DNA of 50,746 bases from Bacteriovoracales bacterium (GCA_026713835.1 JAPONP010000088.1:1-50746); one strand, 5' to 3'. Shown: positions 11,783 to 38,762, counted from the stretch's first letter. The notes: a model not told the origin generated them from the sequence alone. A program made the numbers and translations.

Positions 11783-13006
11783 TCAAACGGCCAATATCTT
11801 GAGGGCCTCTCGGATGCCCTTGGCCAATTGCTCGATCTCTTCGACCGTATTGTACATGGCCAAGGAGGCCCGGGTGGTGGAATCGGCCCCAAACCTTTTG
11901 AGCAAGGGCCAAGTGCAATGGTGTCCCGTCCTTACGGCCAGTCCCTTTTGCCCTAAAATCATGCCCAAATCCTGGGCGTGGGCCCCTTCGATGACGAAGG
12001 TAAAGAGCGGCACCCTTTGGGAGGCCTCCCCCAAAAGATGCAATCCGGAAATCCCCTTCAAAAGCTCGAGTCCACAGATTGTAAGCTCCTCTTCGTGGGC
12101 CATCACCCCCTCAAAATCCAAGGACTCAAGATAGCGGATCGCCGCTCCCAATCCTATGGAGCCCGCAATATGGGGAGTTCCCGCTTCAAACTTATAGGGA
12201 ATCGGAGCATAGGTCGTCTCGGCAAAATCCACCTGATCCACCATATCTCCACCTCCCAAAAAGGGGGGCATACGTTCCAAGAGTTCCTTTTTCCCATAGA
12301 GAACCCCAAGGCCCGTGGGGCCAAAGACCTTATGGGAGGAAAACACATAAAAATCCACACCCAAATCCCTGACATCCACACGAAGATGGGGGATCCCCTG
12401 GGCCCCATCCACAATGACGAGGGCCTTGGAGTTTTTTTTGACGAGAGAGACGATTTCTCCTACGGGATTGATCGTTCCCAAGGTATTGGAGACGTGGGGC
12501 AAGACCACGAGTTTCGTTTTTTTGGACAGGAGGGAGGTCAGGGCCGGCATCTCCAACTCCCCCCGATCACTTACGGGGATGACCTTGAGGACGACTCCTT
12601 TTCTTTCTCGAAGAAGTTGCCAGGGAACGATATTGGAATGATGGTCGCTTACGGTGAGCAATATCTCATCTTCGGGCCCAAGAAGGGATCCATAGGAGTG
12701 GGCCAAGAGGTTCAGTCCTGCGGTGGTTCCCGAAGTCAAAATGATTTCATCAGAGCTTGAGGCATTGATCCGGCTTTGCACGAGACTTCTCGTCTTTTCG
12801 TATTCGCTCGTGGCCTTCTTGGCCGGACCGTGAAGGGCGCGATGAACGTTGGCCGAATAAGAACAGTAATAGTCGCTCAAGGCCTCAATAACGGCCTTGG
12901 GTTTAAGGGTGGTGGCCCCGTTATCCAAGTAAACGAGAGGGGAGCCTTCAAAACCCTTGGCGATCATGGGAAAGTCGCGACGAATTTTTTTGACGGAAAA
13001 ACTCAT
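11783..13006 (-). CDS. sufS: Cysteine desulfurase SufS (class V aminotransferase, group II)
   Basis: 407 aa with the PLP-lysine motif FSSHKVFGPTG and the active-site loop RTGHHCTWPL. Located in a sufBCDS array. Confidence 0.9.
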   Translation of the reverse strand: MSFSVKKIRRDFPMIAKGFEGSPLVYLDNGATTLKPKAVIEALSDYYCSYSANVHRALHGPAKKATSEYEKTRSLVQSRINASSSDEIILTSGTTAGLNLLAHSYGSLLGPEDEILLTVSDHHSNIVPWQLLRERKGVVLKVIPVSDRGELEMPALTSLLSKKTKLVVLPHVSNTLGTINPVGEIVSLVKKNSKALVIVDGAQGIPHLRVDVRDLGVDFYVFSSHKVFGPTGLGVLYGKKELLERMPPFLGGGDMVDQVDFAETTYAPIPYKFEAGTPHIAGSIGLGAAIRYLESLDFEGVMAHEEELTICGLELLKGISGLHLLGEASQRVPLFTFVIEGAHAQDLGMILGQKGLAVRTGHHCTWPLLKRFGADSTTRASLAMYNTVEEIEQLAKGIREALKILAV

Positions 13007-14295
13007 GGGCCTTCTTCCCCATCCCCTATTTTTTCGAGGATGGATCGCTCCAAATAATCCGCACTCAACCTGTGGAGGGATTCATTTTCGATGGGAAAAA
13101 GGGTCTCCTCGCAAAACCCCCGGGCCAAAAACCTCTTGGCCTTGGATTCATCAAATCCCCTGGAGCGTAGATAAAAGAGTTGCTCCCCATCCATCTGACC
13201 TATGGTGGTTCCGTGGGTGCATTTGACATCACAATGACCTATTTCGAGGACGGGCCTTGAATCGACCCTTGCCGTATCCGATAACAAGATATTGTTGTTG
13301 AGTTGGGAAGACTCTATATCCGCTTGGTCTTTTCCCACCACGATGGTTCCCTGAAAGAAGGCATGGGAATGATGATTCAAAAGCCCCTTATAGAGTTGTC
13401 TTGACGATGTTTTTGGAGCTTTGTGATCGATCAAAGAGACGTGGGAAGAGTCCTCATTTGTATCGTGGACGTAAAGTCCCCCTAGGGAAACGTGGGCCCC
13501 TTCTCCCAAAAGCTCCACTCGAAGATCGTTTCGCAAAAAACTTCCCCCCAAGGCCAAGGCCGCATTGCCGTAGCGGGCCTCCTTATGAATCTGTGCCAAA
13601 ACCTTTGAAAAGGGCATAAGACCCTTTCGACTCTTAAAAATCCGAACGTGATCCAGATGGGCCCCTTGCCCCAAGGTGATTAGGGTGTGGGCATTGTAGA
13701 GGGCCGAACCCAAATCCTCTGTGGAAGAGGTGAACTCGAACAAATGGGCCTTGGACTTCTCACGGGCATGGACGATCAGGAGGGGATGGGCCATGGTTCC
13801 CTCAAAGTTTTTATCCATGAAATGATAGATTCCTAGAGGCCTTTCCCCCCTCTCTTCTATCTCCAAGCGGTAGGCTTCACGGCAATAGGTCAAGGCGAGA
13901 TCCGTAAAACAATCCTCACCTTGGAGTTGCCTCGTTAAAGGATCGAAGTCTCTTTCCTCTTTTAAGGGAAAGAATCGATACCCGGGGCCCAAGGTACTTA
14001 GGGTTTTATCCCAATGTCCGTTGTAAAAGACGATCCTTTGATCCAAAAGATCCACAGGGGGAGTTCCGGGGAATCTTTCCCCTTCGCTTTTCCAGGCATA
14101 AGATCCCGTAAGGCCCTTGAGGGAGGTGTATTTCCAGGCCTCATCTTTTCGTCCGGGAAGCCCCTTATCGGCAAACCCTTTGGCCCCAAGGGAGCGAAGG
14201 GCATGGAGGGAATCGGGCCCGGTTTGGCCCAAGGCTTTATAGGGGGCCAAGAGAGCTTCCAATGCATCCCCATCATTCATGCCCGTACGACCCAA
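13003..14295 (-). CDS. sufD: Fe-S cluster assembly protein SufD
   Basis: 430 aa with a SufB/D-type C-terminal beta-helix region. Located between sufC and sufS and overlaps both neighbours. Confidence 0.85.
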
Positions 14296-15041
14296 TCATA
14301 ACCCTTGCTCTCAAGCTCTAAGGCCAAAGACGAATCTCCCGTCTTGACGATAAGACCATCCGAGATAACGTGGACAAAATCCGGGGTGATGTAATTGAGC
14401 AAGCGCTGGTAATGGGTGACCAAAACGATGGCATTGTGTTGGGCCCGCAAGGAGTTGATCCCCTTGGCCACGATCTTTAAGGCATCGATATCAAGGCCCG
14501 AGTCCGTTTCATCGAGAAAGGCCAATCTTGGAGCGAGGACGGCCATTTGCAAAATTTCATTTTTCTTTTTTTCCCCGCCGCTAAAGCCCTCGTTAAGGGA
14601 ACGCTTCAAAAAGCTCCCATCCATTTCGAGAAGGTCTAGTTTTTCCCGAAGGTATTGGTCGAAGTCATAGGGGTCCATTTCTTCAAGACCTTGGGCCTTG
14701 CAAACCTCGTTAAAGGCCGTTCTTAAAAAGTTTTCATTGCTCACTCCCGGAATTTCCACAGGGTATTGAAGACCTAAAAAAATCCCCGCACGGGCCCTCT
14801 CATCCGGCTCCCAGTCCAAAAGGCCCACCTTTTTCCCGTCCACCTCGTAATCGATTTGCCCTTTGGTGACGTGGTAATCGGGATGCCCCGCCACGGCTTT
14901 GGCCAAGGTGCTCTTGCCGGAACCGTTGGGCCCCATGAGAGCATGGACTTCCCCCCTTTTCACCTCAAGGGAAACTCCCTTCAGGATGGAGGCCTCTTCA
15001 GGGCCTTCGGGGGAAACGTGGAGATCGGTAATACTCAACAT
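14277..15041 (-). CDS. sufC: Fe-S cluster assembly ATPase SufC
   Basis: 254 aa with Walker [10 protein letters not shown], signature [11 protein letters not shown] and Walker [12 protein letters not shown]. Confidence 0.93.
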
Positions 15042-15059
15042 ACTCGATGGCCCTCCCCT

Positions 15060-16493
15060 TTATCCTACGGAATGTTCAAGTTTCATTTCGAGAAGTTTAA
15101 CGGCTTCTTCGCTAAACTCTAAGGGGAGTTTCTTGAAGACCTCTTGGCAAAAACCATTGATCATAAGCCCCACCGTTTTTTCCATATCCATTCCTCGGGA
15201 ACGACAATAAAAAATTTGGTCTTCGCCGATCTTTGTGGTGGAGGCCTCATGTTCCACCTTGGCCGTTTTGTTCCCCACCTCGATGCTGGGGAATGTATTG
15301 GCCCGGCAACGATCTCCAATGAGCATACTATCGCATTGGGTGTAATTTTTGGCCCCATGGGCCCCCGGCATGACCTTGACGAGACCCCGATAGCTATTGA
15401 CGGACTCCTCCGCACTGATACCTTTGGAGATAATCGTACTCTTCGTTCCCTTTCCCACATGGATCATCTTCGTCCCCGTATCGGCTTGCATACGGTTATT
15501 GGTCAAGGCCACGGAGTAAAAAGACCCTCGGGAGTTTTCGCCAACGAGGTGACAGCTGGGGTACTTCCAAGTGATGGCACTCCCAGCCTCCACTTGAGTC
15601 CAGCTAATAGAACTATTTTCCCCTAGGCAATGGCCTCTTTTGGTCACGAAATTATAGATCCCCCCCTTGCCCTTTTCATCTCCCGCATACCAATTTTGAA
15701 CGGTGCTGTAGTTGATGGTCGCATCCTTTAGGGCGACGAGTTCCACGACGGCTGCATGGAGTTGGTTTTCATCTCGCTGGGGGGCCGTACAGCCCTCGAG
15801 ATAATTGACAAAGGAGCCTTCGTCGGCGATCAAAAGGGTGCGCTCAAATTGACCCGTCTCGGCTGCATTGATGCGAAAATAGGTGGAAAGATCCAAAGGA
15901 CAACGAACCCCTTTGGGGATATAGCAAAAGGAGCCGTCCGTAAAAACCGCTGAGTTTAAGGCCGCAAAATAATTATCTCTTCTTGGGACGACGGTGCCCA
16001 AGTACTTACGCACCAGTTCCGGGGGCATTTCGATGGCCTCGGCCATGGAACAAAAGATGATGCCAAATTTGTCCAACTCCTCCTGATGGGTCGTCCCAAG
16101 GCTTATGCTATCGAAAACCGCATCCACGGCCACTCCCGCCAAACGCTTTCTTTCCAAGAGGGGAATCCCCAATCGATCGAAGGTGGCCAGGAGTTCCGGG
16201 TCCACTTCGTCCATACTCTTGTACTTGGGTTTTTTGGACTTGGGGCGAGCATAAAAAGAGATTTCCCCGTAGTCGATGGATCCTATGTCCAGGGCGGCCC
16301 AACGGGGTTCGTCCATCTTTTTCCAGGTCTCGTAGGCCTTAAGACGCCAATCCAAAAGCCAGGTCGGCTCCTTTCTCTTTTCGCTAATAAGGCCTACGAT
16401 CCTTTCATCGAGTCCCTTGGGGAACTCTTCCATTTCAATATCGGTCACGAAACCGTATTTGTACTTTTCCTTGACTTTGCTTTTAAAGCTCAC
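15060..16493 (-). CDS. sufB: Fe-S cluster assembly protein SufB
   Basis: 477 aa with highly SufB-like sequence (YGFVTDIE..., FYCRSRGM...). GTG start preceded by GAGG. Confidence 0.93.
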
Positions 16494-17439: not shown

Positions 17440-18771
17440 CTATAGCCTCAGCTTTTGGCCCACAAAAATACGAGACGATCTCAATCGGTTTTTCCTCTTG
17501 ATATGGGCGATACTCACCCCAAAAAGAGAGGCAATCCTCGAAAGATTATCTCCCTTGCGCACTCGATAGGGCCCCCGCCCCTTGGAGGATGGGGAGATTC
17601 TAAGCCTTTGCCCGGGAAAGATGAGAGACGATGCCAAGCCGTTGAGTCTTCTTAGGGTGGAGAGTTTTTTCCCATATTTTTGGGCAATTTGGGTGAGGTT
17701 TTCCCCCCTTCTTACGATATGGTAGCGAGAAGATTTGGATTCGGACTTTCGGCTAACCCTGCGACGACGTTGAACCCGATGCCCTTTGAGGGAGGCCAAT
17801 TTTCTCGAATGGACGGCCCTTTCCTCGGGAATCCAAATCCTAGAGGCCTTCCCCCTAAAAGCTCCCGTATGCCCTCTTCTAAGCTGCGGATTGATCTTTT
17901 TGAGCTGAGATCTCGGGGTTTTTAAAGCTCCGGCCACTTTGGCCAGAGGAACGAAGGGGGGGACGGGGACGGCCTTCACGGCGGGGTGACGTTTAAGCCC
18001 CAAATGGCGGGGGTGTTGGAACCCAAACCTTTCGGGGTTTTGGCCTATGATAACTGCGGCCATGAGCTTGGGAACGTAATTTCTCGTCTCTTTGGGCAAA
18101 AGTTTTTTCCGGGCCAAGGTCCAAAAATTTCTGGAATCTCCTTTCATCACGGCCCGAAGCACCCGGTGTTCCCCACAGTTATAGGCCGCTAGGGCCAGTT
18201 CCCAGGAATGAAAGACTGTGTGGAGGTCTTTTAAATATTTGACGGCGGCCTTTGAGGCCCTGATGGGATCCCTTCTTTCATCCACAGAGGCGTTGACTCT
18301 AAGTCCGTATCGCTTCCCGGTTCCCTTCATAAATTGCCAAATCCCCACCGCTTTGGATCTGGATTTGGCGTGGGAGACATAGCTGCTTTCGATCAGGGGA
18401 AGAAAAAAAAGCTCTTCGGGCAATCCGCTTTCCTCCAAAGATGTTTTGACGATTCCCTCGTAAAAAAAACCTCGATTGAGGGCCCGTTGAAAGACGTCCG
18501 CTCCCCTAGAAGTGAAATACTCGATCCATTTTTTGACATTTTCATTTTCGACGATTTGAAAGGAGGAGAGGCTTCCCTTCTGCACCGAAGCGGGTGCGGA
18601 CGGTTTTCCGTAAGACTTTGAATACTCGGGAGAGACCACCAAGGGGGAGGAAGAGGGAAACGAAGAAGGGCCCAAGGAACTCGAAGCCTCACCACTCGAA
18701 GGCCTACTGTAAAGGGAAGAGCAGCCCACGAGAAAAAGAGACAAGAGAAGAGCGCAAAATCCTCGAATCAT
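17440..18771 (-). CDS. Membrane-bound lytic murein transglycosylase (SLT domain) with two C-terminal LysM domains, MltD-like lipoprotein
   Basis: Lipobox LFLVGC after the start MIRGF (trimmed from 18870). SLT motifs ESSYVSHAKSRSKAVGIWQF and AAYNCG. Two LysM repeats (YHIVRRGENLTQIAQKYG..., YRVRKGDNLSRIASLFG...). Confidence 0.85.
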   Translation of the reverse strand: MIRGFCALLLSLFLVGCSSLYSRPSSGEASSSLGPSSFPSSSPLVVSPEYSKSYGKPSAPASVQKGSLSSFQIVENENVKKWIEYFTSRGADVFQRALNRGFFYEGIVKTSLEESGLPEELFFLPLIESSYVSHAKSRSKAVGIWQFMKGTGKRYGLRVNASVDERRDPIRASKAAVKYLKDLHTVFHSWELALAAYNCGEHRVLRAVMKGDSRNFWTLARKKLLPKETRNYVPKLMAAVIIGQNPERFGFQHPRHLGLKRHPAVKAVPVPPFVPLAKVAGALKTPRSQLKKINPQLRRGHTGAFRGKASRIWIPEERAVHSRKLASLKGHRVQRRRRVSRKSESKSSRYHIVRRGENLTQIAQKYGKKLSTLRRLNGLASSLIFPGQRLRISPSSKGRGPYRVRKGDNLSRIASLFGVSIAHIKRKNRLRSSRIFVGQKLRL

Positions 18772-18866
18772 TCCGATTCCCCCAAATAGAAAAGGGCCAT
18801 CCTCATCGGCTGCCCACACTCCCATTATAGCAAAGGCCCGCAGTTTCTCAATAAAGTGCCTATCTA

Positions 18867-19682
18867 TCATATCTTGCCCCCGTTGACCCCGAAACGAATC
18901 CTAAAGGGACGAAAATGCCATTCCATGAGGAGGGCCCAAGCGATCATGGCCGTGCAAAAGAGTTGCCCCAGGGAAAGAGGGCCTAAGACCGGCCCCCATT
19001 GGGGGTCGGGGGCACGAAAAAAACCCACGATCAATCGACCCACACCGTAGGCAAAGAGGAATAAAATGGACTGATGTCCTTTGAGATAGAGGTATTTTTT
19101 TTGGCCGTAGAGAAGGATGAAAAGAAGGAGTCCTTCCACCAAGGCTCCGTAGAGTTGCGAGGGATGCCTCGGGGCCTCGTCCAAAGCCTTGGGGAAAATG
19201 ACCGCCCAAGGAACTCGAGTAATTTTGCCCACGAGTTCTCCATTGATAAAATTTCCAATTCTTCCCAGCATAAGCCCTAGGGGAGCGAGAGTGGCCACCA
19301 TATCCGTAAAATGCAGAGGAGAGATTTTGAGGAGGCGGGCCTGGAAAACGACGATCGCGACGATTCCCACAAGGGCCCCGTGAAAACTCATTCCCCCCGC
19401 CCAAATTTTGGGGATCATCTCGGGATTCTCCATAAAATAGCGGGGATGGTAGATCAAGATGTAAAAGACTCGACTTCCCAGAAATAAGGCCAACCAAGCG
19501 GGCCAGCACATTTTGACAAAATGACCCCTCGAGATATTCCCGTAACCTCGCCCGATAAGGGCCTGCCCCATGTAAAAGATCCAAAGAGAGCCCAGTAAAT
19601 AGAAAAGCCAATACCAATGAAAATCCAATCCGAAAAGATGAAAGGCAACGGAGTCCAATCGATGGATGGCATACCTTTCCAT
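18867..19682 (-). CDS. lgt: Prolipoprotein diacylglyceryl transferase
   Basis: 271 aa polytopic protein with Lgt motifs GGMSFHGALVG and GRIGNFINGELVGK. Confidence 0.9.
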   Translation of the reverse strand: MERYAIHRLDSVAFHLFGLDFHWYWLFYLLGSLWIFYMGQALIGRGYGNISRGHFVKMCWPAWLALFLGSRVFYILIYHPRYFMENPEMIPKIWAGGMSFHGALVGIVAIVVFQARLLKISPLHFTDMVATLAPLGLMLGRIGNFINGELVGKITRVPWAVIFPKALDEAPRHPSQLYGALVEGLLLFILLYGQKKYLYLKGHQSILFLFAYGVGRLIVGFFRAPDPQWGPVLGPLSLGQLFCTAMIAWALLMEWHFRPFRIRFGVNGGKI

Positions 19683-19703: not shown

Positions 19704-20303
19704 TTATTTTTCGAGGACGATATCGAGCCTGACGTCCACTTCACTCCCTATGACCGTTTTGCCCACGATACCCTTAAATTTCTTCCATAGGTTTTTTTCC
19801 AAAGGACGATTCCAAGTCACTCCAAAATCGTCTTTGTTGATTTTGGTCAAGGCCTTAAAACGTCCGGGCCCCACTCTCTTGACATCCAGGGATACGTCCC
19901 TGGTTTTTCCCTTGAGGGTGAGTTTTCCCGGGAGCTTAAAACGATCCTCTATTTTGACTTTCCCGGGGCCTTGTCGAAACTTCATCACGGCGTTTTCGGA
20001 TTTTTCCACATCAAAAAAATCCGCACTTCTCAAATGATCGTCCCTCTTTTGTTTTCCCGTGTTGATACTGCCCACGGCGATATCGGCCGTCACCCCCGAC
20101 ATCATGGAGCCTTTACCGATGTTGACGGAACCGCTGAATCGATCAAAGTTTCCCTCAACGGTCGCTCCGATTTTATACTTGACGATTTCAAATCCCACGC
20201 GAGATTTTTTGGCATCGATCATCCGGCGGGCCGCATGGGCGGGATCGGAAAAAAAGGTGAGGGGGAAAGAAAGGAAAAGGGCGACGATCGGTAAAGCTTT
20301 CAT
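19704..20303 (-). CDS. YceI-family periplasmic protein
   Basis: 199 aa with a signal peptide ending AHA. Contains the YceI-like core SRVGFEIVKYKIGATVEGNFDRFSG. Its ATG overlaps the DUF2063 gene stop (ATGA). Confidence 0.8.
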   Translation of the reverse strand: MKALPIVALFLSFPLTFFSDPAHAARRMIDAKKSRVGFEIVKYKIGATVEGNFDRFSGSVNIGKGSMMSGVTADIAVGSINTGKQKRDDHLRSADFFDVEKSENAVMKFRQGPGKVKIEDRFKLPGKLTLKGKTRDVSLDVKRVGPGRFKALTKINKDDFGVTWNRPLEKNLWKKFKGIVGKTVIGSEVDVRLDIVLEK

Positions 20304-21061
20304 GGGGTTCTCCTATAAAAAATTGATTGTTTTTCTAAAAACGCTATTTTCTCTCGAAACTCCGATTTCGTAAACCGGACCCTTTCTCCCAAAATCTTTT
20401 GGACCGCAAGGTGAAAGGTTCTCTCATTTTGCCCCTCGCTAGGGCCCGTGGACAGGGCCTCATAGAGGGCCACATGGAAGATGTCACAAAGGGTCATCAC
20501 ACAATTTCCCGTCTTCTCATCCCTTGCGATCACGAGGATATTGGATTTTGGAGAAGGGCGTCCACGGAGAGGTGCGAAACCGTTTTCCCTCTCCCAATGA
20601 AAAATCCATCCGGCGATATCGAAGCGAAGTTCTAAAAGGACGTGGGCCTCATTGAGAATGTAGAGAGGGTCCCCCTGCCCACCGCGTCCCCGCTCGGCCC
20701 AAGCCTTGGGGGAACCTCGGTGACTATAGACCACATATTCGCCCCATTCATACCTGGCCAAATCCACGAGATCTTCCGAGACCAATCGGTTTTTTTCCAA
20801 ATAATCCGGAAAGTGCCGGGCCAAGTGGTTCAATTCCCAGGCGTAGGGGGGATACTCGCGAAAATAACCTTGGGCCCACTCATCCCAGGGGCATGGGTGA
20901 CATTCATCCAAACGAGTATAGACCTTCCCTAGAATCTCCCTATAATGATCCCGAACAAAGCCCCGGTAGAGTTCGCTCACCTTGGGGGAAAGACCCAAAT
21001 CCGCTTCTTGCCCTTCATAGAGGAGCTTTTTCCAACCGGAAAGATAATTTTTAAGCTCCAT
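20300..21061 (-). CDS. DUF2063-family protein, candidate RiPP recognition/partner subunit for the adjacent MNIO (MbnC/BufC/HvfC-like role)
   Basis: About 253 aa. The N-terminal region (YRGFVRDHYREILGKVYTRL...YFREYPPYAWELNHLARHFPDYL) follows the DUF2063 pattern. Its start overlaps the DUF692 stop (TGATG, or TTGA if the TTG at 21064 is used). Confidence 0.75.
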   Translation of the reverse strand: MELKNYLSGWKKLLYEGQEADLGLSPKVSELYRGFVRDHYREILGKVYTRLDECHPCPWDEWAQGYFREYPPYAWELNHLARHFPDYLEKNRLVSEDLVDLARYEWGEYVVYSHRGSPKAWAERGRGGQGDPLYILNEAHVLLELRFDIAGWIFHWERENGFAPLRGRPSPKSNILVIARDEKTGNCVMTLCDIFHVALYEALSTGPSEGQNERTFHLAVQKILGERVRFTKSEFREKIAFLEKQSIFYRRTP

Positions 21062-21969
21062 CAAGACGAAACCCCCGGAAAAAGTTTTTCAAGAACCCCC
21101 TTGGCCCTCACCACCTGTGCATCCAATGTCTCAAAAGGCGGCAGGTTATTGTCCCATTCGATCAAGGTGTTGATGGGACGCCCCGCTTCTTTCAAATACC
21201 ATTCGTAGAGTTCCCACACCTCCTCACAGACGGCCGAACCGTGGGTATCGATGACGAAATCCTGTCTCTGTTCATGGCCGGCCAAATGGATTTGAATCAC
21301 CCGATCACTTGGAAGACGGGTTAAAAAAGCCTTGGCCTTATGGCCCAAATTTTTTTCGTTCACATAAACGTTATTGATATCGAGGAGAAGATAACAAGAG
21401 GTTTCTGCGAGCAAACGGGTGATAAATTCCGATTCCTCCATGGTATGGTGGCGGGATTCCCCGTAATAGGTGATATTCTCTATGGCAAAAGGACGGTCGA
21501 AAAAACGTTGAATCCATCGGATTTTGTGGATCGTTTTCTCCAGAGAATCTTCGGTTTTGAGAATGGGGAGAAGGTCGTGGTAGTGATGCTTGAGAGAAGA
21601 GGAGATGCAAAGGTGGTCGCTAAACCAACGGGCTTCCGTGAAGTCCAAAAGTTCCCTTAAAGCCTCGCAGTAATCCGGGGGGACATCTTCACAGGAGCCA
21701 AGGGAAAGCCCCAAGCCATGGCAAACCAAGGGGTACTTTCCCTTGAGATTCGCGATGGCCCGGCGAGGTTTTCCCCCGTAGTCCATAAAGTTTTCACTGA
21801 TCAGCTCAAACCAATCGATGTGGTGGGAGGTCTCAAAAATGCCCCTCTCGTGTTCTAGGCGTAGGCCTGCCCCCACACCTAAAAATGAACGGGGATCAGC
21901 CGCAACTTCCCTTTCCGCATTTTCCACAGGAACCCTTTTTTCCCTTCTTGTCTTTTCCGCATTTCCCAC
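21061..21969 (-). CDS. DUF692 / multinuclear non-heme iron oxidase (MNIO, MbnB-TglH-BufB-HvfB family)
   Basis: TIM-barrel DUF692 pattern: GVGAGLRLEH, WFELISENF, CHGLGLSLGS, FSDHLC, HDLLP, AIENITYY, LLLDINNVYVNEKN, HLAGH, IDTHG, TLIEWD. The start is GTG at 21969 or 21927, both inside the 3' end of the precursor ORF. Confidence 0.88.
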   Translation of the reverse strand: MGNAEKTRREKRVPVENAEREVAADPRSFLGVGAGLRLEHERGIFETSHHIDWFELISENFMDYGGKPRRAIANLKGKYPLVCHGLGLSLGSCEDVPPDYCEALRELLDFTEARWFSDHLCISSSLKHHYHDLLPILKTEDSLEKTIHKIRWIQRFFDRPFAIENITYYGESRHHTMEESEFITRLLAETSCYLLLDINNVYVNEKNLGHKAKAFLTRLPSDRVIQIHLAGHEQRQDFVIDTHGSAVCEEVWELYEWYLKEAGRPINTLIEWDNNLPPFETLDAQVVRAKGVLEKLFPGVSS

Positions 21970-22108
21970 AGGAACCCTTTTTCATCTCTTTATGATCCCC
22001 GCTCTTCCAAGACTTTGGAGTCATATCGGCACAGCCGGTCATCCCGACGACCACGGCCCCCGTCAAAAAGGCCCTTTTGAGCAAATCTTTTGTCGCTTTC
22101 GTTTCCAT
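21896..22108 (-). CDS. Candidate RiPP precursor: 70-aa exported Cys/Gly/Lys-rich peptide (METKATKDLLKRAFLTGAVVVGMTGC-ADMTPKSWKSGDHKEMKKGSCGKCGKDKKGKKGSCGKCGKGSCG)
   Basis: The ATG at 22108 is preceded by AAGGAGGG with a 6-nt spacer. It has an N-terminal signal peptide with a lipobox-like MTGC and a core with five CG dipeptides. It lies immediately upstream of, and overlaps, the DUF692 gene. The listed 83-aa ORF (to 22147) is an upstream extension without an SD. Confidence 0.7.
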   Translation of the reverse strand: METKATKDLLKRAFLTGAVVVGMTGCADMTPKSWKSGDHKEMKKGSCGKCGKDKKGKKGSCGKCGKGSCG

Positions 22109-22226
22109 GGTGTTCCCTCCTTCTTTTAGATTAAGATCGACATTCACTTTTAAAACTCATATCTAAAGCATCCTAATCACCCGAAACGAAAATAGCAAAT
22201 TAAAAAAAATGTTATGGAGCGAACGA

Positions 22227-23906
22227 TCACCTGGTCAATTTTTTATAGACGATTCGATGGGGACGATCGGCTTCATCTCCTAGGCGACGACGAAGATCCT
22301 CTTCGTATTGAGAGAAATTGCCATCGAACCAAACCGCTCGGGAATGGCCTTCAAAGGCGAGAATATGGGTGGCGATGCGGTCGAGAAAGTAGCGGTCGTG
22401 GGAAATCACCACGGCACATCCCGGAAATTCCATAAGGGCGTTTTCGAGGGCCTGAAGGGTATTGACATCCAGATCGTTGGTGGGCTCATCGAGAAGAAGA
22501 AGATTCCCTCCCCCCAAAAGGGTTTTGGCCAAATGGGCCCTGGTCTTTTCTCCACCGGAAAACTCCTTGACCTTCTTTTTTTGGGTGTCTCCCGTAAAAC
22601 CAAACTTGGAGATATAGGCCCGCACGTTCACGTCCCTTCCCCCTACGGAAACCACGTCGAGATCCCCTCCAATCTCTTGAATGAGGGTTTTTTCTCCATC
22701 CATGGAGCGAGTTTGATCCACATGGGAAATTTGAACCGTCTCCCCCGTTTGAAAGGTTCCCTCATCCGGCTCCAATTCCCCTACGATCATCTTAAAAAGC
22801 GTCGTCTTCCCGGCCCCGTTGGGCCCGATCACCCCCACGATCCCTCCGGGAGGAAGCCCGAAGGAGAGATCTTCAAAGAGAAGTTTTTCCCCAAAGCCCT
22901 TCTTGATCCCGGAAGCCTTGACCACGAGGTTCCCCAAACGCGGGCCCGGGGGAATGGCCAATTCACTGACCTCCCGGTATTTTTCCTTTTGCTCCCGATA
23001 AATCCTGTCGTAATGATCGATTCTCGCCTTGGATTTGGCGTGACGGGCCTTGGGAGTGGAACGAATCCACTCCAATTCCTGGGCCAACCACTTTTGCCGC
23101 TTGGACTCTTGTTTTTCCTCTTTGGCCAAACGCTTGCGCTTTTGATCCAACCACGAGGTATAATTGCCCTCCCAAGGAACCCCGTGCCCTCGATCGAGTT
23201 CCAGTATCCAGCCGGCCACATTGTCGAGAAAATAACGGTCGTGGGTAATGGCGATCACCGTTCCTTTGTAGTGTTGAAGGTGACGCTCAAGCCATAAGAC
23301 GGTTTGGGCATCCAGGTGGTTGGTGGGCTCATCCAAGAGAAGAACGTCGGGCTCTTGTAAGAGCAATCGACAAAGGGCGACCCGCCTTCGCTCTCCTCCC
23401 GAAAGATCATCCACCACGGTTTCTTCGGGAGGACAGCGAAGAGAATCCATGGCCAGTTCCAAACGGGAATCCAAATCCCAAGCCCCACAGGCATCCAACT
23501 CGTCCTGAAGTTTGGCCTGACGATCCAAAAGATCGTTCATGGCCTTATCGTCCGTGACGCTCTCAAATTCTGCGTTGATCTTTTCAAATTCATTCAAGAG
23601 ATCCACCACCTCTTGGGCCCCCTCCCGCACCGTCTCCTTGACCGTCTTGCCGGGAGTAAGACTCGGCTCCTGGGGAAGATGACCTACGGAAATTCCCTTG
23701 CTCCGATCCACCTTCCCCAAATAATCCCCGTCGAGTCCTGCGATGATGCCAAGAAGGGTCGATTTTCCGGCCCCGTTAAGACCCAAAACTCCGATCTTGG
23801 CCCCGTAGAAAAAGGAAAGGGAGATGTCCTTGAGAACGTGTTTGCGTCCGGGGTAAACCTTACCGACCCCCGACATGGAAAAGATGATTTGCCGATCCGT
23901 ATTCAA
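22227..23906 (-). CDS. ettA: Energy-dependent translational throttle protein EttA (ABC-F)
   Basis: 559 aa with two ABC cassettes (GLNGAGKST / GPNGAGKTT, LSGGERRRV / FSGGEKTRA) and the EttA-like N-terminus IIFSMSGVGKVYPGRKHVLKDISLSFFYGAKIGVLG. Confidence 0.92.
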   Translation of the reverse strand: MNTDRQIIFSMSGVGKVYPGRKHVLKDISLSFFYGAKIGVLGLNGAGKSTLLGIIAGLDGDYLGKVDRSKGISVGHLPQEPSLTPGKTVKETVREGAQEVVDLLNEFEKINAEFESVTDDKAMNDLLDRQAKLQDELDACGAWDLDSRLELAMDSLRCPPEETVVDDLSGGERRRVALCRLLLQEPDVLLLDEPTNHLDAQTVLWLERHLQHYKGTVIAITHDRYFLDNVAGWILELDRGHGVPWEGNYTSWLDQKRKRLAKEEKQESKRQKWLAQELEWIRSTPKARHAKSKARIDHYDRIYREQKEKYREVSELAIPPGPRLGNLVVKASGIKKGFGEKLLFEDLSFGLPPGGIVGVIGPNGAGKTTLFKMIVGELEPDEGTFQTGETVQISHVDQTRSMDGEKTLIQEIGGDLDVVSVGGRDVNVRAYISKFGFTGDTQKKKVKEFSGGEKTRAHLAKTLLGGGNLLLLDEPTNDLDVNTLQALENALMEFPGCAVVISHDRYFLDRIATHILAFEGHSRAVWFDGNFSQYEEDLRRRLGDEADRPHRIVYKKLTR

Positions 23907-23961: not shown

Positions 23962-24849
23962 TCATTTCGGAAAGAGGCCCCCAAAGAGGGAGAAGACAAA
24001 GATGAGGTAAGCCGGAAAATAAAAGAGGGCCAAGGTGAGAAATTTGATGCTTTTGGTGAAACGGAGAAAGGCCTTAAAATCCTCTTCCATGTAAAAATCC
24101 AACTCGTCTCTAAGTTCGTAAAGAGAATCGACCATGGAATGTCCACGGTGATGGCATTGGCCAAAAAGTTCCTCCAGTCGTCTTGCGATGACGGCGAGCT
24201 TTCCCTTCCTCGGCAAACGCTCCGGAGCGCATCGCTCGATCACTTCCCCAAGGGGCATTCCCAACTGCCCAAGGATAGCCGCACTGATGAGGGTGTGGTA
24301 ACAAGACTCGTAAGGACGAAAAAGTGCGATCTTTCTCTTTTGGTAGAAGAGATAAAAGCTTAACGCTCCCGCCCCTTGAAGCCCTGCCACCAGGAAAACA
24401 TCACCCCTTTCGGGCCATAGTTTCAAAACCCACCGACAAAAAAGACCAAAGCCCCATGTAACGGCCACAAAAGTGACGATTTGACCGAGTGTCGAAATGA
24501 GATGAGTGGAAAGTTTTTGTTCAAACTCCCAATCCTTGATTAAACACTTTCGCATATTTTTGAGATGCCCCGAAATAGGGGCCCCCCATTGCATGGAGTA
24601 TTGCAAAATGGTCTGAAGAAGAGCGGTATAAAATTTGTACCGGGGAAAGGCCAACTCCTCGGAAGAAACCCGTATTTGCCACTGAGCGTGACGGGCGATA
24701 AGATCCACCAATTGATCCAAGAGGTGCTTGGCCCGTCCACTCCTTCCCTCCGAGAAGGAGAAGCGAAAAGGGGAAGGGGAAGTGAGGGCCCAATTGAGGA
24801 CCATATAAAGTGCCGTCAGATAAAAAATAAAGGGTAATAAGGCCCACAT
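23962..24849 (-). CDS. Hypothetical polytopic membrane protein (weak resemblance to T2SS-F/TadB-type platform proteins)
   Basis: 295 aa with at least four hydrophobic helices and a cytosolic helical segment before the last TM. No family is confidently recognised. Confidence 0.5.
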   Translation of the reverse strand: MWALLPFIFYLTALYMVLNWALTSPSPFRFSFSEGRSGRAKHLLDQLVDLIARHAQWQIRVSSEELAFPRYKFYTALLQTILQYSMQWGAPISGHLKNMRKCLIKDWEFEQKLSTHLISTLGQIVTFVAVTWGFGLFCRWVLKLWPERGDVFLVAGLQGAGALSFYLFYQKRKIALFRPYESCYHTLISAAILGQLGMPLGEVIERCAPERLPRKGKLAVIARRLEELFGQCHHRGHSMVDSLYELRDELDFYMEEDFKAFLRFTKSIKFLTLALFYFPAYLIFVFSLFGGLFPK

Positions 24850-24969: not shown

Positions 24970-25218
24970 ATGAGTCATCATAAGCACGAACTTCAACAGC
25001 AATACGATGAATTGAGCTTTTTGTGTCACCATTACGACCCCTATTGGCCCGACAAAACGTCGGAAAGTGTCAACGCCCTCCTTAAAAAATACCACCTGAC
25101 CCATCTGGACGATCCCTTTGTCATCAGCACCGAATTGCTCAAAATGCTCGTCCAATGTGAAAACGCCATGAAGAAACAAAAAGAGGAACGGGATGCATCC
25201 CAAACTTCCCTGCAATGA
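24970..25218 (+). CDS. Hypothetical small protein (82 aa, His/Gln-rich N-terminus)
   Basis: ORF with AAGGAA upstream. Its stop is directly followed by the ATG of the next gene at 25220. No recognisable family. Confidence 0.5.
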   Translation: MSHHKHELQQQYDELSFLCHHYDPYWPDKTSESVNALLKKYHLTHLDDPFVISTELLKMLVQCENAMKKQKEERDASQTSLQ

Positions 25219-25219
25219 G

Positions 25220-26767
25220 ATGGGGGATCCCTCTTTTTTCGTAACTGCTCTCCTCCTCCTTTTCCTTTCCTCTCCCTTTTTCACCGTCGCTCGGGGCAAT
25301 GTAACCTTCGACCTCGATCCCGATGGGGGTCAAAATGTTCTTTCCGGTCGAAGGATCGCTCAAAAATCTTTTCCCCTCTATGTGGATGAAGCCGACGGCT
25401 CCACCACCTCTCCCCATGTGATCTATTATCCCTTTATCAGTGCTTGCTCCAACACACCGGCCGATGCTAAGGCCTTCACGTTGGTCACATCTCCGGGGGA
25501 TAACGCCCCTTGTATGGGAACCACAGATCTCGAAGGAGAAATCCTCATCCCCCATTCATCCGTAGGAGACGGTCATCTCTATGCAGCTTTTGAAACCACC
25601 ATGCTTGGGCAATTTGAGATCATTTCCATAGGAAGGGGACCCGATGAAACACCCCAAGACAATTTGGAGGTTGAGGGCGAAACCCAAATCTCCGTTCGGG
25701 TGGATGTGGGACGGGCCTGCGCCGTCTATTCCTGCTCTCTTCCTTCAAACGACGTGTCCACTCTCTCGAGACGACTTTTGGTCTTTCATTCACAAGATGA
25801 AACCCTCCATACGGGAAAGTCCCTCACCACGGATGATGCGGTCTTTGAGCAAGGAGAAGTCTATAATATCAAAATATCCCGCAAACTCCCCTCACCATCG
25901 GCCGGCACCCATTTGCCCACTTACGAATTTTTCAAGGGAGATTCCCAGGTCTTCGTGAACTACAAAACCGAGGGACTTTCCATTAACCCCAACGAGATTC
26001 GCGCTCTGCGGGTGGTGGCCTATCCCAATCCCACGCAAACTTCGACTCCTTTTTGCGATAGCCAGACCACCGTGGACGGAGGTTGCCTCGCTCCCTGTGG
26101 AACCGAAAAATCCTGTCCCGTTTTCCGCCTGGAAGAGGCCGTGGAAACGGAAGAACGGGAACTCGTTCTTTCGGGTCTCAAAAACGGAGACCCCTTGCAC
26201 CTTTCGGTTTGCGTAGAAAACAAATGGGGCTTTTGCTCTGCTTTCCCTGCTACCCAAACCATTGCCCCCCAAGGGCTGGAAACATTTTTACAAGAACAGT
26301 CCTGCTTTTTTTTCTCGGCCGGCTTTAGACGAGAACACCGGGTGATCGAAGAACTCAAATGGTTTCGAGACCATATCTTGGCAGGCCATCCGTGGGGAAG
26401 ACAGTTCATCCGCTTTTACTACTCCAAGGCCCCTTCCTACGCCCTCTTTGTGGCCGAAACTCCCGTGCTCCGATTCTTTGTGCGCTCCGTGGCCCATGTT
26501 CTTTCCTCCGGCATCTCCCTCTATCGATCCTTGAGGGAGGAAGAAGGGGAAGACAAAGGCAATGTAACTGCTCGCACCTCTAGCAAAAACTGTAATAAAG
26601 GCAAGGTAACTGTTCTCCACCCGGATAAGATTGGTAGGAGGCAACGAGGAGCGCCCGAGGCGTGCTTCCTGCACGTCGCAGGGGAGCGACGAGGCAGTCG
26701 ACTGCCAAGATTGCCGGGGGGTGAGCAGTTACAAGGCAATAAGGACAAAGACCATGGCCGGACATAG
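25220..26767 (+). CDS. Hypothetical secreted protein with a Cys-initiated C-terminal helical/anchor-like domain. The 3' end is interrupted in frame by a MITE.
   Basis: Signal peptide MGDPSFFVTALLLLFLSSPFFTVARG. Cys-rich extracellular region. C-terminal segment CFFFSAGF...LKWFRDHIL...GRQFIRFYYSKAPSYA.... The last 59+ codons read through the repeat element at 26564-26732. Confidence 0.6.
   Translation: MGDPSFFVTALLLLFLSSPFFTVARGNVTFDLDPDGGQNVLSGRRIAQKSFPLYVDEADGSTTSPHVIYYPFISACSNTPADAKAFTLVTSPGDNAPCMGTTDLEGEILIPHSSVGDGHLYAAFETTMLGQFEIISIGRGPDETPQDNLEVEGETQISVRVDVGRACAVYSCSLPSNDVSTLSRRLLVFHSQDETLHTGKSLTTDDAVFEQGEVYNIKISRKLPSPSAGTHLPTYEFFKGDSQVFVNYKTEGLSINPNEIRALRVVAYPNPTQTSTPFCDSQTTVDGGCLAPCGTEKSCPVFRLEEAVETEERELVLSGLKNGDPLHLSVCVENKWGFCSAFPATQTIAPQGLETFLQEQSCFFFSAGFRREHRVIEELKWFRDHILAGHPWGRQFIRFYYSKAPSYALFVAETPVLRFFVRSVAHVLSSGISLYRSLREEEGEDKGNVTARTSSKNCNKGKVTVLHPDKIGRRQRGAPEACFLHVAGERRGSRLPRLPGGEQLQGNKDKDHGRT
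26564..26732 (-). mobile_element. MITE-like repeat element, copy B (169 nt, full length, with a nested 73-nt extra segment)
   Basis: Inverted termini GTAACTGCTCGCACC... / ...GGGGGGTGAGCAGTTAC. Flanked by a perfect 8-bp direct repeat AAGGCAAT (26556-26563 and 26733-26740). Homologous to copies at 1-56 and 40501-40589. Confidence 0.85.
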
Positions 26768-28276: not shown

Positions 28277-28825
28277 ATGAAAAAAACTTTTGCCTCAATA
28301 GCTTTAGCATTTTCCCTCTCTCTCCTCTCCCATGCACAGATGTATGACGGAACATCGACTTGGAATGGAAATAACGCCTTCTCCTTTATAAGTATGGAGG
28401 GAGTAAAGATGCAATCCATCGAAGAAGCTCTTAAAAAGTGTCTGGAAAGTGGGGCCCGTCTCTGCTCCTACCAAAACTCGAAAACCAATAAATTTAATAA
28501 CGTAGAATGGTCTTACCTTCACAATATGAAAAGACACTACCATAGTATCACGAGTACGGTTGAGTCTCTCGATGATTTGGATTTATCCGAAGGAGAACTT
28601 TATACGGAAAACGATGGATGGCTGGCTCATAAACGAGCCCCCCTCACAATTGATGGAGTTCGGGCCATGGCACTGATGAAGGCCCTCCACAGTTGTTACA
28701 ATGACGGGTATCGCTTTTGCGTTTTGCTCACAGTTCCCCTTATAACGCAAAACCAATCGATTGGTAAAAACTACTATATTAACGCCGAAGCGAGCGTCCA
28801 GGGTTATAAGCTACGCAGAGAATAA
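28277..28825 (+). CDS. Hypothetical secreted protein (182 aa)
   Basis: Signal peptide MKKTFASIALAFSLSLLSHA. Several Cys pairs. The gene is AT-rich relative to its neighbours. No recognisable family. Confidence 0.55.
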   Translation: MKKTFASIALAFSLSLLSHAQMYDGTSTWNGNNAFSFISMEGVKMQSIEEALKKCLESGARLCSYQNSKTNKFNNVEWSYLHNMKRHYHSITSTVESLDDLDLSEGELYTENDGWLAHKRAPLTIDGVRAMALMKALHSCYNDGYRFCVLLTVPLITQNQSIGKNYYINAEASVQGYKLRRE

Positions 28826-29956
28826 AAATCTTAAGGATCTGCCCCACAGTTTTTGTAGAAAAAGCGGCCAAGGGAAAATGTGGATACCATCGGAAGTCAC
28901 CCTATGTTCAAGGTCTTGGGAAATGACAAAATACTCCTTCACAAGACCCTCTTCCTTAAAGGCCCGAAGCCCTTTCAGATGCTTATCTTGAACCATACTT
29001 GTGGACTTAATTTCAATAGCGGCCCATTTTTCTATGATGAGATCGACCTCAAATTTTGAAGTCGATCTCCAGTAAAACATTTGCAAAGACATTCTATGGT
29101 AACTGATAAAGGCCCGTATCTCCAAAATAATGAAATGCTCAAAAGCTTTTCCAAAGAGTTCACTGCGATCTTCAATCCCCCCCCTGTGGGATAAGCAATT
29201 GGTAACTCCAAGATCAAAGAGATAATATTTAAAACGGGATATGGCCTTACGCTTTTTGCTCCCGGTATATCCGGCCAAGGGAAACCCAAGAAGAGTATCA
29301 TTTAAAATACCGATGTAGTTTTTCAGTGTCGTCGGAGAAATTTGCAAATCTCTCGAAAACCCATCGTAGTTTATCTCTTGTCCGTTGGAGAGGGCCATCA
29401 ATTCCAAAAACTCAGAAAAAGCGGGGATATTGCGAGTAAGGGCCTCTTGTTGAACTTCCTCCCGAAGGTAAAGGCCCGTGTAGGACAGAAGTTCTTCTCG
29501 GTAGTCGGGAGAATCGTACACCTGGGGTAGTCCTCCTCGATTGAGATATCTAAGCAAATCAAAATCGGAAATCTCAGGCGAAGTCAAAGGGAAGAGTGAA
29601 GCCCACCAAGCCCTTCCTGCAAGGAGATTCACCCCCTTTCCCTTGAGCTTTCGGGCACTACTGCCGGTGAGCAAAAAAGTGTATTTTTTCTTCTCGATCA
29701 AACGGTGAACTTCATCTAAAAGGGGGGGGAATTTTTGAATTTCGTCGATAACGACGATGTTCTCGCCTCGGTGTTCCTCGTCCAACAAAGAGGGGCGTTT
29801 GACAAGGCGTTGGAATGTCAATGCATCCAGAAGATCATAAAAACGGGTACAGGGAATTTGTTTAACGAGGGTGGTTTTTCCCGTCGAGCGAGGCCCAAAG
29901 AGAAAGAAGGACTTCTTTTGGAGGAGGAGGGGGAGATCGAGAAGACGGCGATACAT
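28811..29956 (-). CDS. AAA_14 / DUF4143 family ATPase, paralog 1
   Basis: Walker A FGPRSTGKTT, Walker B VVIDEIQ and a C-terminal DUF4143-like region. I place the start at MYRRLLDLPLLLQKK (29956) by analogy with paralog 2. The listed start at 29995 lies inside an upstream repeat. Confidence 0.8.
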   Translation of the reverse strand: MYRRLLDLPLLLQKKSFFLFGPRSTGKTTLVKQIPCTRFYDLLDALTFQRLVKRPSLLDEEHRGENIVVIDEIQKFPPLLDEVHRLIEKKKYTFLLTGSSARKLKGKGVNLLAGRAWWASLFPLTSPEISDFDLLRYLNRGGLPQVYDSPDYREELLSYTGLYLREEVQQEALTRNIPAFSEFLELMALSNGQEINYDGFSRDLQISPTTLKNYIGILNDTLLGFPLAGYTGSKKRKAISRFKYYLFDLGVTNCLSHRGGIEDRSELFGKAFEHFIILEIRAFISYHRMSLQMFYWRSTSKFEVDLIIEKWAAIEIKSTSMVQDKHLKGLRAFKEEGLVKEYFVISQDLEHRVTSDGIHIFPWPLFLQKLWGRSLRFLFSA

Positions 29957-29962
29957 TTGGTC

Positions 29963-30054
29963 ATTATAGCGTCTATTTGATGAAAATCCATACATGAAGT
30001 GTGGATTTTAATGAAAATCCACATATAAGGCGTGGATTTTGATGAAAATCCATA
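29963..30054 (-). promoter_or_regulatory. TATAAT box plus three palindromic boxes spaced about 31 nt apart (GTGGATTTT-N4-AAAATCCAC), a candidate operator array
   Basis: Perfect 9-bp-arm palindrome at 30001-30022, an 8/9 palindrome at 30032-30053, and a degenerate copy at 29971-29993. On the minus strand TATAAT (29968-29963) lies 6 nt before the ATG at 29956, suggesting a leaderless or very short-leader mRNA. Confidence 0.5.
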
Positions 30055-37304: not shown

Positions 37305-37411
37305 ATCAGTGCTTCTCCTCTCGCCTATCCTACGGCATGGAACAAACGAAGACAAGGGTGGGCAGTTTGCACGAATTGACAAAAATTTCTCCTCTCCCTA
37401 CCCTCAAATCA

Positions 37412-38498: not shown

Positions 38499-38762
38499 AT
38501 GAGTACAATTGCAACGACCAAAATGTCTTCAAAGGGCCAAGTTGTTATACCTGAATCAATCAGAGATCAACTGAGTCTTGGCCCGGGAACTCAATTTGTC
38601 GTTCTCGGCCAAAAAGACACCGTTATTTTGAAATCTATTCAGGCCCCACCACTGGAAGAATTTTCAAATTTACGAAAGAATCTTCGACGGCAAGTCAAAA
38701 AAATTCAACTCAAAAAAACGGATGTAACAAAAGCCATACGGAAAGCTCGAAAGAAAAAATGA
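38499..38762 (+). CDS. AbrB/MazE/SpoVT-family antitoxin
   Basis: 87 aa with the looped-hinge-helix motif KMSSKGQVVIPESIRDQL. 4-nt overlap with the PIN gene. Confidence 0.75.
   Translation: MSTIATTKMSSKGQVVIPESIRDQLSLGPGTQFVVLGQKDTVILKSIQAPPLEEFSNLRKNLRRQVKKIQLKKTDVTKAIRKARKKK

Follow-up and report, generated by a model that had tools for sequence, protein, structure and literature searches.

The 50,746-bp contig of a Bacteriovoracales bacterium (GCA_026713835.1, JAPONP010000088.1), here called the window and used as the frame for all positions, carries at 19704-22226 four tightly coupled genes on its minus strand: a small precursor open reading frame (ORF), a multinuclear non-heme iron oxidase (MNIO, DUF692), a DUF2063-like partner protein and a YceI-like protein. 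This locus is probably a captophorin-class operon of the HvfA/oxazolin-fontiphorin-bufferin type, whose peptide would undergo modification in the cytoplasm, be exported and, most likely, bind copper. By function the system is grouped with the captophorins; by profile scores, none of peptide, MNIO and partner reaches the curated cut-off of its family, and they are not equivalogs of HvfA, HvfB and HvfC. Together with its relatives, the locus represents a small undescribed branch of the class, from a thinly sampled bacterial lineage, with its own motif after the signal peptide and with YceI in the slot that is usually taken by DoxX.

Clusters that combine an MNIO with a DUF2063 protein are among the most widespread pathways for peptides made on ribosomes and modified after translation (RiPPs); they have been tied to tolerance of copper and oxidative stress, including in pathogens, and have been characterized almost only in Pseudomonadota. 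In HvfA, a peptide with a Sec signal peptide, six cysteines are modified by HvfB and HvfC (PMC11252979). The Buf_EGKCG/oxazolin family, with members of 31-506 aa, was surveyed together with hundreds of small Cys-rich signal-peptide ORFs beside MNIOs (Antoine et al., 2025, PMC12452194), and the precursors of MNIOs with DUF2063 partners characteristically bear Sec signal peptides (PMC12452194). More than 24,000 MNIO-PME1 loci have since been surveyed and the class named captophorins (Gadgil et al., 2026, PMC13097082); the same study revised the oxazolin structure, identifying the product as 5-thiooxazole, and showed Cu(I) binding (PMC13097082). In light of these two surveys, the novelty implied by a preliminary description of the window, which had been made from the sequence and which had proposed the four genes as a RiPP-type operon, was overstated, and the heterocycle/thioamide chemistry which it ascribed to HvfA-type peptides has moved from oxazolone/thioamide to 5-thiooxazole (PMC13097082). 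Its placement of the four minus-strand genes agreed with our reading of the sequence.

The small ORF at the head of the operon is a real gene and more than a chance ORF. In a DNA alignment of the 33 N-terminal codons from five loci, variable columns at codon positions 1, 2 and 3 number 14, 14 and 30 of 33, respectively, as is typical of coding DNA. The precursor (70 aa, P0001) and the MNIO (P0002) were both already gene-called on the same contig in the protein collection, contrary to the earlier expectation that the precursor would be hidden from gene callers. That concern does hold for two related loci (L003:3895-4302 and L004:3601-4107): the gene caller missed the precursor of L003 and stretched the MNIO to 393 aa, and in L004 it called a 62-aa ORF in the wrong frame and stretched the MNIO to 322 aa. 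These caller errors arise because long Lys/Cys/Gly repeat arrays create long ORFs in alternative frames. A longer, GTG-started version of the window precursor (83 aa, from 22147) was ruled out, as the ribosome-binding site sits at the ATG at 22108 and the homologues begin at the equivalent Met.

A word-based search with the window peptide alone recovered no relative besides itself, and the peptide matched no family in Pfam or NCBIfam. Relatives emerged after the loci of the nearest MNIO homologues (57-69% identical, from ENA and Logan metagenome assemblies) had been read and a profile had been built from their upstream ORFs. The preliminary description had recommended comparing homologous loci for a conserved small CG-rich ORF, and in nine related loci whose DNA was readable such an ORF, with a matching N-terminus, immediately precedes the MNIO gene; the ORFs used for the profile are 90-168 aa long, and all related loci keep the order of MNIO and partner. 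In these relatives the N-terminus reads K-D-L-V-K-R-A-L-x-x-G-A-V-T-x-G…D-L-T-P-D-S-W-K-A-x-A and is followed by a core of C-G-E-G-x-C-G repeats with Lys-rich spacers between them. The window peptide aligns with the relative P0124 at E = 2e-16 (pairwise BLASTP), and D28, T30, P31, S33 and W34 are invariant in an alignment of 21 family members. The precursor profile found 20 proteins in a collection of 5.8 billion proteins, and 69 at E <= 1e-3 (16 at E <= 1e-10) among 1.84 billion representative proteins; the named sources of these matches are Bacteriovoracaceae and Halobacteriovoraceae. The motif D-x-T-P-x-S-W followed by CG repeats occurs in 49 sequences of the set examined, 48 of them besides the window. 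Among the matches listed from a scan of metagenome contigs with the peptide, one, L011, was a spurious, high-GC, proline-rich locus.

Among the 21 aligned family members there are 14 with a match to NF050188, the model named "RiPP metallophore HvfA" (best E = 5.8e-11), and 8 with one to NF050137. The window peptide is assigned to the HvfA family because of its N-terminal homology and gene order, and by this sequence comparison the family is a branch of the HvfA/EGKCG precursors, with the window peptide as a divergent member of the branch. Together with the upstream CG-repeat ORFs of the related loci, the matches to the HvfA models support the earlier proposal that the 70-aa peptide is the substrate of the MNIO. 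It is barely credible, by comparison, that the peptide acts unmodified as a metallothionein-like, Cys-rich peptide while the MNIO serves another substrate: peptides rich in Cys, Gly and Lys can bind metals by free thiols, but wherever the DNA of a related locus was readable, a CG-repeat ORF immediately precedes the MNIO gene, and HvfA, FonA and NgoA are proven substrates with the same gene order.

After the signal peptide, two mutually exclusive motifs were observed: peptides of the Bacteriovoracaceae-like clade have D-x-T-P-x-S-W-x-A-x-A, and the proteobacterial HvfA-like peptides have N-P-F-x(4-6)-L-x-x-G-Y. The sequences suggest that each lineage may use its conserved segment for recognition by its own partner protein, which is here very divergent. 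As a separate observation, the entry for Bdellovibrio bacteriovorus (GCF_000196175.1) in supplementary file 3 of PMC12452194 apparently lists an MNIO, a DUF2063 protein and DoxX with no recognized precursor signature; if the column order of that table is read rightly here, this would fit precursors of Bdellovibrionota escaping the published precursor profiles.

The core of the window peptide is contracted. It reads KKGSCGKCGK-DKKG-KKGSCGKCGK-GSCG, with Gly after all five core cysteines, and its DNA contains a 30-nt direct repeat whose copies lie 42 nt apart and differ by 2 mismatches; this repeat was recognized on visual inspection and with a script, and Tandem Repeats Finder gave no result for the core. 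The window has G-S-C-G-K-C-G where relatives have G-S-C-G-E-G-K-C-G, which means that an "EG" is lost and no Glu is left. The resulting Cys spacing of 3 sets the window apart from all others among 80 proteins, as adjacent Cys pairs of the relatives occur 201 times at spacing 5 and never at spacing 3. Position 1 of the 5-mer is acidic for most core cysteines in most relatives and for 0 of 5 in the window. The E-G-K-C-G 5-mer repeat which defines HvfA-family precursors is thus missing from the window core, while the second feature of that family, a small residue (Gly or Ala) after Cys, is present as Gly at all five. At 70 aa, against 67-168 aa in the relatives, the peptide is among the shortest. 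All four differences from HvfA listed in the preliminary description were confirmed in the sequence, namely the shorter length, the packing of cysteines as C-G-K-C-G, the lipobox-like Cys and a YceI gene in place of DoxX.

The assignment of the second gene (288/302 aa) to DUF692 was borne out by the profile search, in which PF05114 (MbnB_TglH_ChrH/DUF692) scored 300.6 bits against a cut-off of 25 and was covered from position 1 to 261 of 263. The best NCBIfam matches were the BufB model NF050167 (286.7 bits, cut-off 310) and the HvfB model NF003818 (236.4 bits, cut-off 360), and the MbnB model reached 37 bits. The motifs ENF, CHG, FSDHL, HDLLP, IEN, LDINN, HLAGH, DTHG and EWD all align with PDB 3BWW and are kept in 28 homologues; their assignment as metal ligands rests on published structures. 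The 5' end of the MNIO gene shares 32 nt with the 3' end of the precursor gene if the GTG at 21927 is the start, or 74 nt in the longest ORF. The former start is used by the gene caller of the collection (P0002, 288 aa), and the MNIO homologues start a few residues ahead of a conserved L-G-V-G. When genome contigs were scanned with the MNIO, the sole match was L001, from a metagenome-assembled genome of Steroidobacteraceae, with an MNIO 37% identical to that of the window. In this locus the ORF upstream of the MNIO (L001:3715-3972) encodes a bufferin precursor of the standard DUF2282 type, 85 aa long, which forms a contrast to the window cluster.

Two positions of the enzyme differ from those described for related MNIOs. 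The N-terminal segment reads G-L-R-L in the window, in contrast to R-R in 27 of the 28 nearest homologues (R-K in the remaining one) and in 3BWW. At the catalytic-base motif the window has E-W-D-N, and throughout the clade the catalytic Asp is followed by Asn or His, where 3BWW has D-F, HvfB-like enzymes have Phe and Buf2-type enzymes reportedly Asp. In FonB, Arg15 and Arg16 flank Glu1 of EGKCG; Arg at position 1 stops processing unless Arg15 is removed, and the R15A variant accepts a basic residue there (PMC13097082). Only small residues are allowed at position 5, the catalytic base is Asp249, and selectivity is tuned by Phe250 (PMC13097082). The FonB-like "Lys-Cys" signature (Arg-Arg, and Phe after the catalytic Asp) is not found in the window enzyme, which, mapped by motif position, has R-L and D-N. 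On the same mapping, the Leu of the window enzyme would replace the Glu-contacting Arg16 of FonB. The combined loss of Glu from the substrate and of Arg from the enzyme looks like co-adaptation of enzyme and substrate.

Taken further, these features would amount to a natural re-tuning of a captophorin pair, marked by a Glu-free C-G-K-C-G core, the loss of the Glu-contacting Arg, a lipid-anchored metallophore and the replacement of DoxX by YceI. We regard this extended reading as unlikely. Under it, two thiooxazoles three residues apart would form a CxxC-like bidentate unit, which is unseen in the 79 relatives examined; if true, it would offer a readable specificity code for thiooxazole-forming MNIOs and the first membrane-tethered, differently spaced copper site. 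The window pair is a natural experiment on Cys selectivity, on which the specificity rules put forward in 2026 can be tested.

The same contraction could be read as decay, in which case the core would be a poor substrate or none, the Arg-to-Leu change neutral or damaging, and the operon in the course of losing its function. The peptide is indeed among the shortest of its family (70 vs 67-168 aa), its core falls outside every family model, and FonB tolerates little change beside the Cys. This explanation is nevertheless improbable, as the four ORFs are intact, translational coupling and a strong ribosome-binding site have been kept, and the conserved MNIO motifs and the catalytic Asp are retained. 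In addition, each core Cys still has Gly after it and a small residue or Lys before it, as FonB accepts, and the contracted unit has itself been duplicated.

The third gene probably encodes, as assigned earlier, a divergent member of the DUF2063/HvfC type, to judge from sub-cut-off scores, matches of orthologues and gene order. It matches NCBIfam HvfC (NF050145) at E = 5.6e-7 over residues 22-208, with 29.6 bits against a cut-off of 142. Five of eight partner orthologues match DUF2063 (best E = 4.5e-8), and a profile of the orthologues matches PDB 3DEE, the PME1 of Neisseria gonorrhoeae, at E = 9e-4. The gene directly adjoins that of the MNIO in the window and in the related loci, which is the position expected of a PME type 1 protein, and its ATG at 21061 overlaps the MNIO stop in the sequence TGATG. 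A single-sequence AlphaFold2 model of the partner had a mean pLDDT of 37.9, too low for a reading of the fold.

Export of the peptide is suggested by its N-terminus. Residues 1-27 comprise a K/R-rich n-region and the hydrophobic stretch AFLTGAVVVGMT, and they show the layout of a signal peptide, in which the basic n-region is followed by some 15 uncharged residues and by sites of the small-x-small type, and which we infer to act as a Sec export signal. It would alternatively be conceivable that this segment is solely a cytoplasmic leader, with the conserved D-x-T-P-x-S-W region serving recognition, and that the product acts inside the cell or leaves it otherwise, given that conservation of the N-terminal region far exceeds that of ordinary signal peptides and that its hydrophobic stretch is moderate (Kyte-Doolittle mean over 12 residues of about 1.9 at most). 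The signal-peptide layout with an AxA-type site in most members, the Sec signal peptides that are characteristic of precursors of DUF2063-partnered MNIOs (PMC12452194), the clear signal peptide of the co-operonic YceI, and the lack of any transporter or leader protease encoded in the operon make this very improbable. Tat export was also considered, as K-R-A-F-L resembles a twin-arginine motif, and was rejected: R-R occurs only in L003, and the other sequences have K-R, K-K or K-T.

How the exported peptide would be processed is a sub-question of the captophorin model. The sequence G-M-T-G-C26 fits the PROSITE-type lipobox [LIVMFWSTAG]2-[LIVMFYSTAGCQ]-[AGS]-C after an uncharged stretch, with K4, K7, K11 and R12 upstream. 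An AxA site lies one residue past the D-x-T-P-x-S-W motif in 30 of 49 relatives, and the window has K-S-G there, so that Cys26 and the lost AxA site could mark a switch to lipoprotein processing. With the chemistry unchanged, Lgt and signal peptidase II would then act at Cys26 and yield a membrane-tethered, copper-binding peptide, and lgt is located 21 nt downstream of yceI. Further plausibility comes from four canonical EGKCG/HvfA-like peptides, as discussed below. On the other side, Cys26 is unique to the window, the other motif-bearing relatives having Ala or Gly there; G-C-A27/D is an acceptable alternative site for signal peptidase I and resembles xAG/D, which is found in 16 of 49 relatives; and Met at -3 is uncommon in lipoboxes. 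Moreover, lgt also adjoins the operon in relatives that do not have the Cys (L002, L005-L007), which points to synteny and not to a functional link, and a link between lgt and the lipobox was therefore rejected as a main explanation. Lipid anchoring, raised in the preliminary description, thus stands as a tentative, window-specific possibility on account of the lipobox-like Cys, and not as a trait of the family.

Lipoboxes were also observed at the end of the signal peptide in the canonical EGKCG/HvfA-like peptides P0175 (LAAGC), P0180 (GATAC), P0189 (LAGC) and P0191 (ATGC), of which three carry the N-P-F-type motif. These sequences suggest that membrane-tethered members of the HvfA-like class exist, and no mention of lipobox-bearing HvfA-like peptides was found in the class literature searched.

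The fourth gene encodes, as first proposed, a YceI protein, matching PF04264 with 114 bits against a cut-off of 23.7. Its PDB relatives 3HPE, 1WUB and 1Y0G are periplasmic barrels that bind polyisoprenoids or lipids. The gene is joined to the end of the partner gene (20300) by an ATGA overlap at its start (20303). YceI follows the partner gene in eight of ten loci with readable downstream genes (the window, L002-L007 and L009, the last from a Bacteriovoracaceae genome) and is absent from that slot in L008 and in one JGI locus. DoxX was found neither in the window operon nor among the larger ORFs of the window, and the presence of YceI in its place, noted earlier for the window, proves to be conserved in the clade. 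No publication linking YceI with DUF692 was found in a literature search; one bufferin cluster with YceI and cytochrome b is contained in the supplement of PMC12452194. The lgt gene adjoins the operon also in L002, L005, L006 and L007, and not in L003, L004 and L009. No terminator was found between yceI and lgt, nor between yceI and the MltD-like gene that follows lgt. The practical value of the locus is modest; it provides a hint to the role of the accessory fourth gene, and it is not a new kind of system.

Seen as a captophorin operon, the locus would function as follows. The four genes, with overlaps that are visible in the sequence, would be translated from one tightly coupled transcript. 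The DUF2063/HvfC-type partner would bind the precursor, probably via D-x-T-P-x-S-W, and present it to the multi-iron MNIO, by analogy with the biochemistry of HvfC and FonC. The MNIO and O2 would convert the five Cys-Gly cysteines to 5-thiooxazole, with a change of -4 Da per site, as can be expected from FonB, HvfB, NgoB and BufB. The peptide would reach the periplasm by Sec export, where signal peptidase I may cut after G-C-A27 or, alternatively, Cys26 may be lipidated. The Lys-rich product would presumably bind Cu(I) via its thiooxazoles and buffer copper or oxidative stress. YceI, encoded at the place in the operon where Pseudomonadota have DoxX, may be a periplasmic accessory protein, and it can be speculated that it has a quinone or polyprenyl ligand, as DoxX may elsewhere.

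Several points weigh against this interpretation. The mechanism as a whole is drawn from sequence and from homologous systems. The substrate of FonB had to have two complete EGKCG repeats, with a small residue following the Cys (PMC13097082), and that both cysteines of a C-G-K-C-G unit may be oxidized is a prediction. The window peptide does not match NF050188 or NF050137 even at E <= 10. Its MNIO, being below the curated BufB and HvfB cut-offs, belongs by its scores to the same broad group and is an equivalog of neither, and the partner reaches 25.5 bits (E = 1.7e-5) with Pfam DUF2063, whose gathering score is 27.2. The FonB residues Arg15/16 and Asp249/Phe250 were mapped via the motif positions of 3BWW and not by a direct alignment with FonB, and the covariation of the Arg-to-Leu change with the loss of Glu is a single case that involves a single-nucleotide change on a metagenomic contig. 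Finally, no copper-resistance or regulator genes were found near the operon, the larger ORFs of the window being housekeeping genes.

The features of the locus are collected in Table 1. In the surrounding DNA, ettA is the gene upstream of the operon, and lgt and then an MltD-like transglycosylase follow downstream. Promoter-like sites in the region are not more numerous than expected from shuffled sequence.

Table 1. Features of the operon and its immediate surroundings (positions in the 50,746-bp window)
Feature	Position	Strand	Basis or remark
Weak sigma-70-like promoter candidate, TTGACC-18-TAACAT (9/12)	22209..22238	-	Consensus match, in the 118-bp gap after ettA
Shine-Dalgarno AGGAGG	22116..22121	-	Sequence read directly; 7 nt 5' of precursor ATG
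Precursor peptide gene, 70 aa, ATG 22108 to TGA 21896; divergent HvfA/EGKCG family member	21896..22108	-	
Signal-peptide-like N-terminus, residues 1-27	22028..22108	-	Predicted
Clade-defining motif D-M-T-P-K-S-W, residues 28-34	22007..22027	-	Candidate recognition element for partner protein (putative role)
Core KGSCGKCGK DKKGK KGSCGKCGK GSCG	21899..21979	-	Five Cys-Gly sites, two contracted C-G-K-C-G units
MNIO (DUF692) oxidase, 288 aa from GTG 21927	21061..21927	-	Longest ORF from GTG 21969, 302 aa
Partner, probably divergent DUF2063/HvfC type (PME type 1)	20300..21061	-	Profile scores, orthologues, gene position
YceI-like periplasmic lipid/polyisoprenoid-binding protein	19704..20303	-	Own signal peptide (…DPAHA/A)
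lgt (prolipoprotein diacylglyceryl transferase)	18867..19682	-	21 nt downstream of yceI; syntenic neighbour, possibly co-transcribed

The genes for lgt and the MltD-like SLT+LysM transglycosylase span 17440-19682 (minus strand), and the latter protein has a lipobox-like L-F-L-V-G-C near its N-terminus; the whole block of precursor, MNIO, partner, YceI, Lgt and MltD is syntenic in L002, L005, L006 and L007. Elsewhere the window encodes LpxK, LpxB, BamA, Lgt, a Suf operon and other housekeeping genes; LpxK, LpxB, BamA and Lgt indicate a diderm organism with a periplasm, and the housekeeping genes mark the window as chromosomal DNA. Scans of the window for Rfam families and tRNAs gave no matches and thus no taxonomic marker. 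The Suf operon for Fe-S cluster assembly (11783-16493, minus strand) comprises a SufB-like protein, the SufC ATPase, a SufD-like protein and the SufS aminotransferase. At 38499-39166 (plus strand) the gene for a MazE/AbrB-type antitoxin (87 aa) overlaps that of a PIN_3-domain toxin (135 aa) in a VapBC-like pair, which lies between two paralogous AAA_14+DUF4143 ATPase genes (28811-29995, minus strand; 39337-40497, plus strand) and accompanied by two small signal-peptide proteins without a family (37337-37831 and 37892-38335). No Pfam or NCBIfam match was obtained for a membrane-protein-like ORF of 295 aa just upstream of ettA (23962-24849, minus strand) and for a 524-aa ORF (25193-26767, plus strand). 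A 540-aa ORF (46376-47998, plus strand) has a 2OG-Fe(II) oxygenase domain (DIOX_N + 2OG-FeII_Oxy) in its C-terminal half and a long, unmatched N-terminal part, and it is overlapped by a 353-aa minus-strand ORF without a family (45833-46894).

Among known systems, the closest counterparts are the "Lys-Cys"/EGKCG captophorins HvfABC (oxazolin, Haemophilus influenzae), FonABC (fontiphorin) and NgoABC (gonophorin), which have the same order of precursor, MNIO and partner, the last being a DUF2063/RRE protein there and a probable DUF2063-type protein in the window. Likewise shared are the N-terminal export signal, putative in the window, the C-terminal x-G-x-C-G array with Lys-rich spacers and the Gly after every Cys of the modified type, and orthologues of the window peptide match the HvfA models. 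These systems differ from the window in their EGKCGEGKCG arrays with spacing 5, as opposed to Glu-free C-G-K-C-G units with spacing 3, and in the N-P-F…G-Y motif which follows the signal peptide of the proteobacterial peptides in place of D-x-T-P-x-S-W. Their enzymes have Arg-Arg, and Phe after the catalytic Asp, whereas the window MNIO has Arg-Leu and Asn; the window MNIO and partner do not reach the HvfB and HvfC cut-offs. The fourth gene is DoxX in these systems and YceI in the window, and while they come from Pseudomonadota, the nearest named relatives of the window are Bacteriovoracaceae and Halobacteriovoraceae.

The bufferins BufABC (Buf1 = DUF2282; Buf2 = the "Cys-Lys" group with 6/12 Cys) resemble the window locus in that the MNIO scores highest with BufB, the partner is probably of the DUF2063 type and the precursor has a putative signal peptide, and the expected function, 5-thiooxazole formation and copper buffering, would be the same. 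In contrast, neither a DUF2282 nor a Buf2 fold or motif is present in the window precursor, the MNIO misses the BufB cut-off of 310 bits, and DoxX, sigma and anti-sigma genes are absent; a typical Buf1 locus such as L001 looks quite unlike it. With the methanobactin system MbnABC the window locus shares an MNIO that turns, or in the window would turn, Cys of a ribosomal peptide into a copper ligand. MbnABC differs in its MbnC partner, where the window probably has a DUF2063 type, in a cleaved leader instead of the putative signal peptide of the window, and in its oxazolone/thioamide products, which serve copper acquisition rather than detoxification. As for the fourth gene, its product shares the YceI domain and a signal peptide with YceI-like proteins such as E. 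coli YceI (1Y0G), Thermus TT1927b (1WUB) and Helicobacter HP1286 (3HPE); whereas classical yceI pairs with cytochrome b561, the yceI of the window has no cytochrome gene beside it and is translationally coupled to the gene of the MNIO partner.

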